The notes beneath the pieces are model-generated. The model saw nothing but the letters and a program-made list of their open reading frames with translations, searched no databases and was not told where the DNA came from. Shown here piece after piece: positions 1,979 to 25,735 of a DNA stretch of 25,735 bases. The DNA is from a virus. Lineage: Duplodnaviria > Heunggongvirae > Uroviricota > Caudoviricetes. A program made the position numbers and the translations under genes. Numbering within the stretch: the first letter of the stretch is position 1; every line of letters begins with the position of its first letter. Location: IMG/VR virus record IMGVR_UViG_2534681655_000008. The stretch is one strand, 5' to 3'.

Positions 1979-2671
1979 TTAATTGTGTCGCTTAAGGGTT
2001 TGTGACTGGCTGATTAAGACCTTTCCAAAGACCATAAACCGGTGTTCATTTTCGCTGGTAATTCCCCATTCACGGTAAATCTGGTTATCAGAAATCACCA
2101 GTAGTTTGTCAGGTATCATTTGCAGTCGTTTGACATAAATTTTATCATCAAAACCAAATACATAGATACCATCTCCATCAAACTGATTGATACTGACATC
2201 AACGAAGATGAGATCTCCTGGCTCAATGGTTGGACACATACTGTCCCCACGAACGTTGATAACTTTAATGTGATTGGCTGGTCGTCCGCCAAACATCGAT
2301 ACAGCATTATCAGTTCTGTATTCAATGGCATGAATCACATCAATGACATCACCGCCCTGGATAAGGCCATTTCCCGCACTGGCACTGACATCCAGCATTT
2401 CAATACGGAATACATCCTTCACCTGCGCAACATCCTCACTAATACTGTTTTTACATACAGTATTACTTTTGAAGTCTGAGGTAAAGAGATCAGCAATATC
2501 AACACCTAAACTCCTGGCAATATTACTCAGGGCTTGTTCAGTGAATTGTTTCTGCTTACCTGTTTCCAGGCGCGAGATATTCGCCGCATCCACTCCTATT
2601 GCTTCAGCGAGATCGGCGATTTTCATGTTCTTCGCCTGGCGAAGTTGTCTGACTCGATTTCCTATGTTCAT
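1979..2671 (-). CDS. CI-like prophage repressor (N-terminal HTH_XRE domain, C-terminal S24 LexA-like autopeptidase domain)
   Basis: 230 aa; N-terminus IGNRVRQLRQAKNMKIADLAEAIGVDAANISRLETGK is a typical XRE HTH; C-terminal GDSM serine motif and downstream Lys; divergent from a cro-like gene; no Shine-Dalgarno before the ATG. Confidence 0.85.
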   Translation of the reverse strand: MNIGNRVRQLRQAKNMKIADLAEAIGVDAANISRLETGKQKQFTEQALSNIARSLGVDIADLFTSDFKSNTVCKNSISEDVAQVKDVFRIEMLDVSASAGNGLIQGGDVIDVIHAIEYRTDNAVSMFGGRPANHIKVINVRGDSMCPTIEPGDLIFVDVSINQFDGDGIYVFGFDDKIYVKRLQMIPDKLLVISDNQIYREWGITSENEHRFMVFGKVLISQSQTLKRHN

Positions 2672-2768
2672 GCGTTTATTACATTTCTTTATTGCGCGTT
2701 AAGCAAATCAACTTGCGCAAAATATTTGCGTGAAATAACATGCTCATCACGCAATATGTGGAGGTTAT
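2672..2768. promoter_or_regulatory. Immunity-region intergenic (right operator with divergent promoters)
   Basis: 97 bp between divergent repressor and cro starts; TTGCG/CGCAA half-sites at 2692-2706, 2713-2720, 2716-2730 (palindrome CGCAAAATATTTGCG) and 2726-2754. Confidence 0.6.
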
Positions 2769-3029
2769 ATGCAATCACCATTACGAAATGTGCGTAAGGC
2801 GCACGGGCTTACTTTGCAGCATGTTGCTGCGGGCGTTCAGGTTAATCCAGCAACGCTGAGTCGTATTGAGAGACTGGAACAAATTCCATCTATCGATCTT
2901 GCAGAGCGTCTGGCCAATTTTTTTAAGGGAGAAATCAGCGAAATGCAGATTCTCTATCCTGCACGCTTTCAATCTAGTCAAAACCGGAATGAGTTAAAAC
3001 CACAGGAACAGGAGGTAAGCCGTGGGTAA
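2769..3029 (+). CDS. Cro-like HTH regulator (86 aa)
   Basis: GGAGG Shine-Dalgarno 4 nt before ATG 2769; HTH motif LTLQHVAAGVQVNPATLSRIE; divergent from repressor. Confidence 0.75.
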   Translation: MQSPLRNVRKAHGLTLQHVAAGVQVNPATLSRIERLEQIPSIDLAERLANFFKGEISEMQILYPARFQSSQNRNELKPQEQEVSRG

Positions 3030-3566
3030 GCATCACTGGAAAGTGGAAAAACAACCTGAGTGGTACGTGAAAGCTATCAGAAAAACTATCGCGGCATTGC
3101 CAGGTGGTTACGCTGAAGCTGCTGACTGGCTGGATGTAACAGAGAACGCATTATTTAACCGGCCGATGGCGATCAGTTTTTTCCGTTGGGATGGGCAATG
3201 GTTTTACAGCGTGCGGCTGGTACTCACCACATTGCGGATGCTGTCGCACAGTCTGCTGGTGGGGTGTTTGTATCACTTCCTGAAATTGAGGAAGTAGAGA
3301 ACGCCGATATAAACCAGCGCCTGCTGGAAGTCATCGAACAGATCGGGAGTTACTCAAAGCAGATTCGTTCGGCAATCGAAGACGGGGTAGTGGAGCCACA
3401 TGAGCAGACAGCAATTAATGATGAGTTGTATCTGTCGATTTCGAAGCTCCAGGAACATGCGGCACTGGTCTACAAAATTTTCTGCGTTCCAGAAAAGAGT
3501 GACGCCCGCGAGTGTGCAGCTCCGGGCGTCGTGGCGTTTTGTGTCTGTGGAGAAACTAACGCATGA
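3022..3566 (+). pseudogene. Early gene downstream of cro with an apparent -1 frameshift at a T6 tract (3177-3182); function unknown
   Basis: Strong AGGAGGT Shine-Dalgarno before GTG 3022; 5' part protein-like to about 3180 then degenerates, while the other frame opens at 3159 and runs protein-like to a stop overlapping the next start (ATGA at 3563). Confidence 0.45.
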
Positions 3567-3891
3567 ACAGTTTAACGGCAAATAACCGTTGGTCGCAACA
3601 GCTGGTGGTCCGCGTGGCTGAACACCTGTTGTTACGGCATGAATGCAGATTACCAAATCACCTGGCTGTAAGTAACCACAGAGAACTTTACCTGACTGTG
3701 GGGGGCGAGTTGTGCAGGAACTTAACCGCTGGTTTCGTGACGGAAGAGGACTTTATGTTCATGTTATTCGTTGGGAGCCAGAAACACAGCGCGTTATCTA
3801 TCTTCGCAAAGACTACCCGCATGAGTGCTTTAGTCCTTTGTGGAAATTCAGGCGTGATTTTGTTGAGTGTGAAGGACCACCAGCACATTGA
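3563..3891 (+). pseudogene. Hypothetical early protein; start-coupled frame (3563 onward) and a better-looking frame (GTG 3712 to stop 3891) joinable at a G6 tract (3700-3705)
   Basis: ATG 3563 overlaps the upstream stop; the 3712-3891 frame encodes ...LYVHVIRWEPETQRVIYLRKDYPHECFSPLWKF..., more protein-like than the overlapping long-ORF frame. Confidence 0.3.
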
Positions 3892-4168
3892 TTCTGCCAT
3901 TCCGGGACGTTACACTGTTCAGGCACCTTATAAAGCGGGTGCCGGGCGTGGAAACCCGGAATTCACCAAAGCGCACAACCGCGCTCTTGCGGTTTTTTTG
4001 TGTCATGAGCAGCATTACGCCCAAATTATGGTGGGGCGTGCAGGGCCAACTTCGGTTGGGCCGGGTTCTTTGGTGACCGGTATTTCCACCCCTGTACGTC
4101 TCACCACCAATAAGGTCGTGGAAAGCCTTGGTGGTGAGTTATTTAAAATCACCAAAGAGGCTGCCATC

Positions 4169-4714
4169 ATGGCTACGATCCCAACCCTCACTCAACCTGA
4201 AATTGCCATCGTTGATGGTCAGGCTGTTACTTCATCCCTGGCTGTTGCCAACTTCTTCTCCAAACGTCATGACGATGTACTGAAAAAGATCCGCACGCTT
4301 GAATGCTCCGCATCATTCACTGCCCGCAATTTTTCGGTGAGTGATTACACCGATTGCACAGGCCGCAAACTACCTTGCTATCAAATAACCCGCGACGGCT
4401 TTGCGTTTCTTGCTATGGGTTTCACGGGTAAACGTGCTGCCCAGTTCAAAGAGGCATACATCAATGCCTTTAACCAGATGGAGAAACAGCTTTCAAGGCC
4501 CGCTGTACCGAGCGACGTTGCACATAACGCCAGCGTTCTCTGTTCCTACATTTCATCAATTCATCAGGTCTGGCTGCAGCAGCTTTATCCTATGTTGGCA
4601 AAAGCCGAATCTCCGCTGGCTGTTAGCTTATATGACTATATTAATGATGCTTCGGCGCTGGCCTGCCTCATAAATTTGTCGCTGAACCCTTCAGAGGTAA
4701 GGGGGCGCAAATGA
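4169..4714 (+). CDS. Phage regulatory protein Rha (antirepressor-like)
   Basis: ATG 4169 with AAGAGG Shine-Dalgarno; N-terminus MATIPTLTQPEIAIVDGQAVTSSLAVANFFSKRHDDVLKKIRTL...ITRDGFAFLAMGFTGKRAAQFKEAYINAFNQME is typical of the Rha family; the ORF track fuses it to 600 nt of dubious upstream frame. Confidence 0.7.
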   Translation: MATIPTLTQPEIAIVDGQAVTSSLAVANFFSKRHDDVLKKIRTLECSASFTARNFSVSDYTDCTGRKLPCYQITRDGFAFLAMGFTGKRAAQFKEAYINAFNQMEKQLSRPAVPSDVAHNASVLCSYISSIHQVWLQQLYPMLAKAESPLAVSLYDYINDASALACLINLSLNPSEVRGRK

Positions 4715-4935
4715 TCCGGAATATTTTCAAACGTTTTACCAATCAGACTTTCCGTTGTCCTCGTCCGGGTCAGTGGTACACCACGCCTGCAGGGCATGTT
4801 CTACGTGTTAGCCTGGTTGACCGTGAATGTCAGAAGGTGGTTTGTGAACCGCTGGGCCGTAATTACCGCGTCAGTATGCCGCTTATAGCCTTTCGCTCCA
4901 GAAAAAACATGAAGCATCTCGGAGGTGCAGCATGA
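4711..4935 (+). CDS. Small hypothetical protein (74 aa), start and stop overlap neighbouring genes
   Basis: ATGA overlap with rha stop and with the next start; several Cys residues; no recognisable family. Confidence 0.4.
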   Translation: MIRNIFKRFTNQTFRCPRPGQWYTTPAGHVLRVSLVDRECQKVVCEPLGRNYRVSMPLIAFRSRKNMKHLGGAA

Positions 4936-23306: not shown

Positions 23307-23339
23307 GCGTGCAGCAAGAACCGTATTGACGGGGATGTG

Positions 23340-24877
23340 TTATTCAGTCGGCAGTGCTACGCGCCAGGGGAGCAGTTCGCCGACCCGGTTTATCGGCCAG
23401 TCGGCTATGACGTCAAGGACATAGCGGAGGTAGCTTTCTGGCTCCACTCCGTTCAGTTTGCACGTCCCGATCAGGCTGTACAGCAGCGCTCCCCGCTCTC
23501 CTCCATGATCCGAACCGAAGAACAGGTAGTTTTTGCGGCCCAGACTGACCATCCGCAACGCATTTTCAGCGATGTTATTGTCCGCCTCAGCCCAGCCATC
23601 ATCTGCATAGTACGTCAGCGCCAGCCACTGGTTCAGGGCGTATGCGAACGCTTTCGCCAGTTCTGAGTGTCGCGACAGGGTTTTCATCTTTTCACGCAGC
23701 CAGCTTTCCAGGGATTTCAGCAGCGGTTTCGTTTTCAACTGACGTTCGGCAAGGCGCTGCTCCGCCGTCATTCCCCTTATCTCTGCCTCGATGGCGTACA
23801 GTTCGCCGATCCGTTCAGCGCTTCCTCCGTCAGGGCTGACGGGGTGCGAACGTGCACATCGTGGATTTTACGGCGGGCGTGAGCCCAACAGGCGGCTTCC
23901 GTTATCCGGCCATCCCGGTACAGCTCGTTGAACCCGGCGTATGCATCCGCCTGCAGTACACCACTGAACCCCGCAAGATGGGTCTGCGGATGGATGCCTT
24001 TTCTGTCCGGGCTGTAAGCGAACCACACCGCCGGCGCCAGCGTTGACCCGGCGTTACGGTCGTCACGAACGTAGGTCCATAACCGCCCGGTCTTCGTTTT
24101 CTTATTGCCTGGCAACAGCACCGGGACAGGCGTGTCATCAGCATGGAGCTTACCGTCAGTCAGCACATAGTCCTGAAGCGCTTCTTCCAGCGGTGACAGT
24201 AGCCGGCAGCATGCATCCACCCAGCCCGACAGCAGTGAACGACTCAGCTCCACGCCCTGGCGGCCGTACATTTCAGACTGGCGGTACAGCGGGGTGTGCT
24301 CTGCATACTTTGAGATCAGCACGCGGGCCAGCAGCCCCGGTCCTGCGATACCCCGCTCGATGGGCCGTGAAGGCGCGGGGGCCTGCACGATGGCATCGCA
24401 CTGAGTACAGGCATGCTTTTCACGTACAGTCCGGATAACCCGGAAGGCGCTGCGCATCAACTCCAGCTGTTCGGCGGCATCCTCACCCAGATAGCTCAGC
24501 GAGCCTCCACATTCCGGGCAGCATGACGCTGCCGGCAGCAGCCGTTTTTCATCGCGGGGGAGTGATTCGGGGAACGGTTTGCGGGTGCGGGTTTGACGCA
24601 GCGGGCGCTGCACGGCCGGGTCGTCAACCCGACCGGTAAGGGTATCACTTTCTTTCTGAAGTGCCTTCAGGTCAGCTTCCATCTGTGCGATACGACGGGA
24701 GACTTTTTCCGAGCGGCTGCCGAAGTTCATCCGGCGCAGCTTATCCAGCTGTGCCTGCAGATGGTCTATTTCGCGTTCACGCTCGTTCAGCTTTTCCAGC
24801 AGGGCACGGTTCAGCGCCTCCTGTTCGGCAAGGAGACGTTTCAGTGCATTGATATCGTCAGGAAGTGAGCTGCTCAT
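23340..24877 (-). pseudogene. tnpC: IS66-family transposase TnpC, split into two frames by an apparent 1-nt deletion near 23814-23818
   Basis: N-terminal ORF (24877-23777) and C-terminal ORF (23771-23340) both match IS66 TnpC; the C-terminal frame is open upstream and would read ...[22 protein letters not shown]... as recalled for intact homologues. Confidence 0.7.
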
Positions 24878-24936
24878 ACCGGGTATATTACCAGGCTCAT
24901 TCAGCGTCGACCAGGATAAAGAGGCTTACAACATAG

Positions 24937-25272
24937 TCAGGACGTAAGTAGTCTTTTAGGCTGCCGCCAGTCGATACCTTCCAGCAGCATCGCCAGCTGT
25001 GCCGGTGTGAGGAACACTTTGCCATCCCGGGCTGACGGCCAGGCGAAGCGGCCGCGCTCCAGCCGTTTGGTCAGCAGACACAGTCCATCGCCGGTAGACC
25101 AGAGGAGCTTTACCTGACTGCCATTACGCCCACGGAAGATAAAAACGTGACCTGACATCGGATCGTCTTTCAGCGTCGTCTGCACCTTTGCCGCCAGGCC
25201 GTTGAAGCCGTTTCTCATATCGGTGATGCCAGCGACCAGCCAGATCTTTGTCCCTGATGGTAATGGGATCAA
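24937..25272 (-). CDS. tnpB: IS66-family accessory protein TnpB (Orf2)
   Basis: 111 aa MIPLPSGTKIWLVAGITDMRNGFNGLAAKVQ... matches recalled IS66 Orf2. Confidence 0.85.
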   Translation of the reverse strand: MIPLPSGTKIWLVAGITDMRNGFNGLAAKVQTTLKDDPMSGHVFIFRGRNGSQVKLLWSTGDGLCLLTKRLERGRFAWPSARDGKVFLTPAQLAMLLEGIDWRQPKRLLTS

Positions 25273-25673
25273 CGTTTGAGCTCCCGTATCAGCAGGTTCA
25301 GGATATTTTCGCTGATGGCACCATTCAGACGGAGTGATCCGTGCCGGAACGTCACTTCACAGCTGATATTGAGTGATTCAGGTGTCGCAGCAGCTACAGG
25401 TTGTGACCGGGGGGAGGTTGTAGGGACAACATCTTCGGCATCAAGTGTTATCGGGAGCAGCTCAGGCACGTTGTTTTCTGTTGTTGAAGGAGGACGTAGT
25501 TTTCCTTCGCGCCAGTACTGGCGCCACTTGAACAGCAAATTATCGTTGATCCCATGCTCACGAGCGAGTTGCGCTACGGAGATCTCTGGTCGATGCGAGA
25601 GTTCCACCATTTTGATTTTGAACTCAACGGGATAATTAGGGCTTTTTTTACGCACTGCGGTTAATGATTTCAT
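25269..25673 (-). CDS. tnpA: IS66-family accessory protein TnpA (Orf1)
   Basis: ELSHRPEISVAQLAREHGINDNLLFKWRQ... HTH-like Orf1 signature; start may be at an internal Met (25610). Confidence 0.7.
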   Translation of the reverse strand: MKSLTAVRKKSPNYPVEFKIKMVELSHRPEISVAQLAREHGINDNLLFKWRQYWREGKLRPPSTTENNVPELLPITLDAEDVVPTTSPRSQPVAAATPESLNISCEVTFRHGSLRLNGAISENILNLLIRELKR

Positions 25674-25735
25674 GAATAGCGTCCACCATATTTGGTGTCC
25701 ACTATTCTCTCAGGAATTTCAGGATCTGCCAGACG

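Follow-up and report, generated by a model that had tools for sequence, protein, structure and literature searches.

The window analyzed here is the full contig APXH01000118.1, 25,735 bp of Escherichia coli P0298942.x (GCA_000356465.2), and our subject is a region of it that contains ymfL and the open reading frame (ORF) that follows ymfL. Positions 404–23307 form a lambdoid prophage, which is flanked by a fragment of an IS3-family insertion sequence (IS) and by a copy of ISEc22/IS66. The host element is a defective lambdoid prophage of the SfV/mEp460/ST64B type, and the region is its early right operon. The DNA of the region is 95–96% identical in the viable phages mEp460 and SfV, occurs also in cdtI and several Stx phages, and was found in more than 2900 complete E. 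coli genomes. The original prediction, which was made from the sequence alone, described two consecutive early genes in this region as interrupted at homopolymer tracts, one of six T (T6) and one of six G (G6).

ymfL and its 7-bp deletion

A cI-like repressor gene (1979–2671, − strand) is followed by a cro-like gene, ymfL, and a 383-residue ORF. The features of this part of the operon are as follows.

2769–3029, + strand: cro-like helix-turn-helix (HTH) gene, the first of the early right operon (Pfam HTH_3, E = 1e-10; annotated as an HTH protein in the relatives L001 and L002)
3022–3566, + strand: ymfL, encoding a CII/CP76-family regulator, here a pseudogene; frame 1 over 3022–3161, with the remainder (3162 up to a TGA at 3564–3566) in the −1 frame
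3161/3162, + strand: junction of a 7-bp deletion (CCTTCGT lost), the true frameshift site, from alignment to L001 and L002
3177–3182, + strand: T6 tract, native, forming Phe-Phe codons of ymfL; equal in length in the intact L001
3563–4714, + strand: composite 383-residue ORF, annotated as "Rha family" in relatives; open throughout, coding-like only in part
3563–3711, + strand: unique 5′ part of the ymfM-like ORF, with an ATG that overlaps the ymfL stop codon (ATGA)
3700–3705, + strand: G6 tract, Val-Gly-Gly in the ymfM-like frame, 6 nucleotides (nt) upstream of the DUF4222 GTG, in Shine-Dalgarno position
3712–3891, + strand: DUF4222 gene, 59 residues, lying within the long ORF in its −1 frame; GTG start; Pfam PF13973; phrog_1343

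The ymfL gene starts with a GTG at 3022 that is preceded by AGGAGG, the strong ribosome-binding site that had been predicted at this position. Its intact homologue in L001 has 552 nt and encodes 183 residues, which match NCBIfam NF041471 with 172.4 bits (cut-off 90). The ymfL of the window gives no full-length single-frame match to this model but two pieces, one of 34.5 bits (positions 2–33) and one of 108.9 bits (positions 46–143), and is a pseudogene of a member of the YmfL/phage CII (CP76; Pfam PF06892) family. The lost CCTTCGT lay 16 nt upstream of T6; the sequence now reads AACCG followed across the junction by GCCGATGG, and CGCCTTCGTGC is kept at this site in all 86 other loci compared. 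Hence, the predicted change of frame is real, but its site is not T6. The T6 position is occupied by TTTTTT or, in most intact homologues, by ATTTTC, always in frame and without length variants among the 87 loci, and a homopolymer slip at T6 was rejected. Since both frames are open over 3159–3297, the shift cannot be placed by reading the sequence alone, and since 7 bases equal 1 base modulo 3, the gene appeared to need one extra base. Translation of ymfL now stops at 3297 instead of 3566, and the deletion would also abolish the ATGA stop–start coupling into the next ORF.

The loss of CCTTCGT is the sole difference between the window and E. coli 510016 over 2701–4800, and the only indel in the 11.7 kb that the two share (99.88% identity); general indel noise in the contig was rejected as an explanation on the same count. 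The deletion is missing from all 2059 E. coli complete-genome records that cover this position, and an exact search with the junction gave no match in IMG/VR or the JGI metagenomes. An exact protein look-up with the 91-residue truncated YmfL, on the other hand, retrieved 14 contigs from separately assembled sibling isolates (P0298942.1, P0298942.2, and others). Two further lesions lie in the IS66 copy and were located by alignment to an intact copy (L125).

23813, − strand: 1-nt deletion, T3 to T2; the ISEc22/IS66 tnpC is thereby divided into 23777–24877 and 23340–23771
24939, − strand: 1-nt deletion, G3 to G2, that alters the C-terminus of the IS66 tnpB product (111 residues, not 115)

The first of these confirms the 1-nt deletion in tnpC that had been predicted. 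This allele is absent from all complete E. coli genomes, but 32 contigs carry both tnpC fragments. For tnpB, the allele recurs in 4 complete genomes of E. coli and on 53 contigs, which include other species.

Deletion-type sequencing or assembly errors had been proposed as one source of the frame breaks. The contig belongs to a draft assembly, all three of its lesions are deletions, and those at 23813 and 24939 lie in short homopolymers, all of which would fit such errors. Against them stand the ymfL lesion itself, which spans 7 nt outside any homopolymer and has no second indel beside it in the comparison with the nearest genome, the recurrence of the exact frameshifted ymfL and tnpC products in separately assembled isolates, and the lengths of G6 and T6, which equal those in intact phages. 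We thus find the proposal unsupported and regard it as very unlikely. Because the ymfL lesion is nonhomopolymeric, is the sole indel in 11.7 kb, and is shared by 14 sibling contigs, a real and clone-specific mutation appears much more likely than a sequencing error, and for the mobile-element genes, too, real and clone-specific decay is much more likely than error. It weighs against this conclusion that the sibling assemblies stem from one project and one clone, which formally allows a shared systematic artifact, and that the deletion is known from assemblies.

The prophage is bounded by ISs on both sides, an IS3-family transposase fragment at 1–403 and the ISEc22 copy at 23307–25735. In strain 510016, the matching prophage remnant is cut by IS100 and ISEc62 instead. 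The difference in IS elements indicates independent IS-mediated decay of the two prophages.

The G6 tract and the nested DUF4222 gene

The second gene of the original prediction starts at ATG 3563, and the overlap of this ATG with the upstream stop codon bears out the predicted start coupling. The G6 tract and, from GTG 3712, a −1-frame ORF that looks protein-like are likewise present as described, but no gene is interrupted there, as the −1 ORF is a separate gene of the DUF4222 family. Its product matches Pfam PF13973 with 51.1 bits (cut-off 27) over residues 3–52 of 59 and phrog_1343 with E = 1e-36, and database relatives named DUF4222 are proteins of 57–70 residues. Using tblastn, the gene was found in 115 phage records at identities down to 38%; it is present in 35 species-level genomes, and the Prokaryotic Genome Annotation Pipeline (PGAP) annotates it in other genomes, K-12 e14 included. 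In the Enterobacteriaceae, all homologues start at the matching position with an ATG, GTG, or TTG of their own, and a purine-rich run precedes it. An AlphaFold2 model of the protein (predicted local distance difference test score 85.7) shows an SH3-like barrel, for which a fold search against the PDB returned only generic SH3/KOW/Tudor-like barrels (best E = 0.04) and no functional lead.

Polymorphism in 40 haplotypes of the window's family shows which of the two frames is constrained. Ten of the 13 polymorphic sites in 3712–3891 fall on codon position 3 of DUF4222, and, read in the DUF4222 frame, 11 changes are synonymous and 3 nonsynonymous, whereas the long-ORF frame gives 1 and 13. The ratio of nonsynonymous to synonymous polymorphism (pN/pS) over the overlap is 0.09–0.19 in the former frame and 1.35–1.86 in the latter. 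DUF4222 is, therefore, the frame under amino acid selection, and the apparent switch at G6 is a separately initiated small gene that starts inside an ORF of another frame, not a lesion. Nor does the proposed second interruption survive comparison with homologues, since the intact mEp460, SfV, ST64B, cdtI, and Stx phages share the sequence and its frame arrangement; the two-frame layout is found likewise in SfII. A frameshift at G6 was rejected because the sequence is identical in intact phages and the 383-residue ORF is annotated as intact in 510016.

The G6 tract is identical in 83 of the 87 related loci; the remaining four carry substitutions (e.g., GGGGGA, GGGTGG), and a change in run length was seen in none. 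ST64B and Citrobacter braakii have GGGGGA at this position. In other families, the corresponding place is taken by AAGGAG, GGAGGG, or GGAG, ahead of ATG, GTG, or TTG. Based on these comparisons, G6 is best read as the putative Shine-Dalgarno element of DUF4222.

Slippage at G6 (and T6), by either a programmed −1 frameshift or phase variation, would instead join the ORF from ATG 3563 to the DUF4222 frame. The sequence G GGG GGC formally matches the slippery pattern X XXY YYZ, and, with the DUF4222 frame open from 3676, a −1 slip at G6 would yield a continuous product. A phase-variable tract is contradicted by the constant length of both the G-run and the T-run across the 87 loci, and the phase variation that had been raised as a third option is thus unsupported. 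A programmed frameshift is at odds with the substitutions within the run and with its absence from the e14/SfII, Flotzy, Klebsiella, and Silvania families, all of which keep the two-frame layout with AAGGAG or GGAG and a start codon of their own. Moreover, the DUF4222 genes of Providencia have no upstream ORF part to which they could be fused, and the break in ymfL is not at T6. We consider slippage highly improbable, more so than sequencing error.

One locus, L124 (IMGVR_UViG_2579778647_000005, ∼1495–1501), carries the sole indel near G6 among the 87 loci. This 1-nt deletion, from GTTGTGCAG to GTTGTCAG, removes the GTG start of DUF4222 and ends the long ORF early.

With DUF4222 initiated separately, the one-base correction that had been suggested for both genes holds for ymfL only, as the equivalent of a 7-base loss, and the suggested pseudogenization in a decaying prophage likewise applies to the first gene, whereas the second is intact. 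In its original form, the finding is for the most part nothing out of the ordinary, namely a decaying prophage with a single clone-specific pseudogene and a conserved overlap of genes that had been misread.

The isrK–C4–Rha module

Downstream of DUF4222, the long ORF runs across a set of RNA elements and into a regulator gene.

3888–3916, + strand: putative isrK promoter, TTGATT, 17-nt spacer, TACACT, read from the sequence; 7 nt upstream of the isrK match
3923–3999, + strand: isrK small RNA, of an Hfq-binding family, with an intrinsic terminator (Rfam RF01394, 67 bits, gathering score 50, full length 1–77)
3948–3954 and 3963–3971, + strand: C4 targets a1 and b1, inside isrK, complementary to the C4 loops
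4024–4111, + strand: C4 antisense RNA (Rfam RF01695, 83.6 bits, gathering score 45), with loop b′ at 4067–4076 and loop a′ at 4083–4089
4028–4168, + strand: orf45-like leader ORF across C4, continuing in frame as Rha; corresponds in position to the first AUG (nt 107) in Gifsy-1 isrK-orf45 (PMC4825925)
4118–4124 and 4149–4158 (together 4118–4158), + strand: C4 targets a2 and b2, with exact complementarity over 7 and 10 nt
4169–4714, + strand: Rha-family regulator/antirepressor, 181 residues from ATG 4169 (Pfam Phage_pRha PF09669)

The terminator of isrK consists of a stem at 3977–3994 followed by T7. Binding to Hfq is a property of the isrK family and is predicted here. It weighs against the putative promoter that a sigma-70 promoter scan of 2600–4300 gave no matches; the candidate agrees with the consensus at 8 of 12 positions, and the scanner needs 9 of 12.

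The loops of C4 are exactly complementary over 7–10 nt to sequences at four sites, of which b2 covers the AAAGAGG ribosome-binding site of ATG 4169. The Rfam c4-a1b1 model scores below its gathering score in the window (22.6 versus 46.7). Across six natural sequence variants, the loops covary with a1, b1, a2, and b2, which is the signature of antisense control of the P1/P7 immI type. SfV, ST64B, and C. braakii likewise carry both isrK and C4. There are at least six C4 specificity types (represented by L118, L101, L010, L114, L122, and L130; positions 3946–3972 and 4060–4160 of the window), and these look like hetero-immune variants of the antisense module.

The 181-residue Rha product matches PF09669 with 107.5 bits (cut-off 29.9) and TIGR02681 with 102.6 bits (cut-off 45.95). 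Variation differs sharply between the two parts of this stretch: 5 of the 278 nt of 3892–4168 are polymorphic, and this variation lacks codon periodicity and is concentrated in the covarying loops and targets, whereas 4169–4714 contains 59 variable sites, distributed 13/9/37 over codon positions 1 to 3. Because the RNA module lies upstream and codon periodicity is seen only from 4169, translation of Rha most likely begins at ATG 4169 or at the in-frame, orf45-like ATG 4028, under antisense RNA control.

The Pfam family Phage_ASH (PF10554) matches residues 117–213 of the composite ORF with 58.9 bits (cut-off 26). This segment corresponds to nt 3911–4201, that is, it lies atop isrK, C4, and the C4 targets, and it is conserved as a nucleotide sequence, with no codon periodicity. 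PGAP calls an "ash family protein" on matching DNA in other genomes. The PF10554 Ash family may, in large part, be an in silico translation of conserved RNA genes. The same DNA thus bears three incompatible public labels, namely a 383-residue "Rha family" protein, DUF4222 plus an "ash family" protein, and ymfM. An old P1 record (X15639.1; L127, 120–320) similarly labels c4 as a protein-coding sequence although it is an antisense RNA, like the annotation of an ORF over RNA in the window.

Two known systems resemble this module. The isrK-orf45-anrP locus of Gifsy-1, whose mechanism was described by Hershko-Shalev et al. 2016 (PMC4825925), has isrK with a terminator, a processed C4-like RNA (STnc1160) within a translated leader ORF, and an antirepressor gene. 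In the window, by comparison, the orf45-like ORF runs on in frame as Rha, with no AUGA overlap at its end, and it is continuous with the upstream ORF; the likeness to Gifsy-1 is one of sequence. The immI operon of P1/P7 (a1 b1 – c4 – a2 b2 – icd – ant) shares with the window the pairing of C4 loops with an upstream and a downstream pair of targets, and in both, b2 covers the ribosome-binding site of the gene leading into the antirepressor. Unlike immI, the window has no Icd homologue, its antirepressor is a Rha-type protein and not Ant1/2, and a1 and b1 lie inside an isrK-type RNA that has its own terminator. The possibility that DUF4222 is an analog of P1 Icd was rejected, since the P1 icd ORF showed no resemblance on inspection.

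The early right operon reads cro-like gene, ymfL, ymfM-like ORF with nested DUF4222, isrK RNA, C4 antisense RNA, and Rha antirepressor. That ymfL is broken by a genuine 7-bp deletion, that G6 is not a lesion and precedes the nested DUF4222 gene, and that an isrK/C4/Rha module follows downstream is, in our judgment, highly probable.

The composite ORF and possible dual coding

The ORF starting at ATG 3563 corresponds to e14 ymfM by its position and by an N-terminal motif, MNSLT..R.SQ, that is common to e14 YmfM and its relatives. Its unique 5′ part (3563–3711) has a pN/pS of 0.39–0.50 across species, as for coding sequence; inside the close family, constraint on it is weak, with 24 polymorphic sites that lack codon periodicity. 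In e14 (ymfL-ymfM, with ymfM as SfiC), SfII, SfV, mEp460, and ST64B, the arrangement is as in the window, with a cI-like gene, a cro-like gene, ymfL, an ATGA-coupled MNSLT ORF, and a nested DUF4222 in the −1 frame. The ymfL of the window differs from all of these by its 7-bp deletion. Compared with e14 YmfM, the unique N-terminal part belongs to a different sequence family, and phrog_1170 matches only the part that derives from the overlap. In e14 and SfII, the ymfM frame has a stop just before the end of DUF4222, and the isrK–C4–Rha module is missing; in the window, this stop is absent and the ORF continues into the module.

Several observations weigh against dismissing the composite ORF as an annotation artifact. 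The ymfM frame is stop-free over DUF4222 in 38 of 38 distinct homologues, including those of Providencia, where codon resampling expects about 5%; the third frame of the same genes is stop-free in 0 of 38. Codon choice within DUF4222 shows the corresponding bias.

Val before a codon starting with A: stop-creating in 0/94 cases in DUF4222 genes (all GTT or GTC), compared with 15/31 (48%) in neighboring genes
Leu before a codon starting with A: stop-creating in 0/28 cases in DUF4222 genes, compared with 33/41 (80%) in neighboring genes

Fisher tests of this stop avoidance give p = 1e-10 to 1e-12, values that are nominal only, as the sequences are related. The identity at third codon positions between DUF4222 families is only 0.2–0.55. 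In addition, none of the six C4 sequence variants has a stop in the long ORF between 3563 and the Rha domain, a stretch that includes isrK and C4. The composite ORF may thus be translated, wholly or in part, and be more than an artifact of annotation.

One way to account for this is that the 383-residue ORF encodes a real protein, with a ymfM-like N-terminus, an "Ash" segment, and Rha, made from PR-derived transcripts, and that DUF4222 is a true overlapping gene within it. The ORF is fully open in E. coli, in Salmonella ST64B, in C. braakii, and in the six C4 variants (69–100% identity), and both the stop avoidance across DUF4222 and the Phage_ASH match are in keeping with its translation, as is the reported fusion of orf45 to anrP in Shigella dysenteriae (PMC4825925). 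The amino acid sequence of such a protein would, however, be unconstrained over 3712–3891, where pN/pS in its frame exceeds 1, and conservation over 3892–4168, where two RNA genes and an intrinsic terminator lie, is at the level of nucleotides and not of codons. Furthermore, PGAP splits matching DNA elsewhere into DUF4222 and an ash-family gene. We therefore consider a single 383-residue protein unlikely, though clearly less so than sequencing error or slippage.

The simplest reading of the stop avoidance appears to be that translation through the ymfM frame is selected, whereas the sequence of the resulting peptide is not. The "switch" at G6 would then be a dual-coding segment kept across Enterobacterales prophages, in which DUF4222 is constrained in its amino acids and the ymfM-type frame is kept free of stops for translation. 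We put this forward tentatively, as a reading with somewhat less than an even chance of being correct. A known parallel is lambda Rz/Rz1, where a short gene with its own start also lies wholly inside an ORF of another frame. The window differs from that pair in that the nested gene is the conserved one and the enclosing frame shows stop avoidance without amino acid conservation, and in that its arrangement is known from sequence.

The DUF4222 genes of Providencia (L040–L043, ∼1457–1666) lack the ymfM-like upstream part, and the overlapping frame is still open. In these loci, the overlapping frame starts with Met-Lys and contains a hydrophobic, membrane-helix-like stretch, e.g., IILIGCIWISAVFVFVSYV.

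Every component of the region falls in a known family, and the dual-coding signal is the sole potentially new element. Its implications concern e14 in the first place. The e14 ymfM gene was reported to be SfiC, an SOS-inducible division inhibitor, on the strength of cloning of the whole ORF, in which the frames were not separated (bioRxiv 10.1101/2020.11.19.390815, PMC3614548), and K-12 e14 ymfM (L009, 2079–2437) contains the conserved nested DUF4222 gene. If the dual-coding reading is true, the division-inhibition phenotype ascribed to e14 YmfM/SfiC could stem, in whole or in part, from the SH3-like DUF4222 protein, and the long-sought identity of e14 SfiC would be directly testable. In the window's family, the frame that stays open through isrK and C4 into Rha could, on PR-derived transcripts, bypass control by the antisense RNA.

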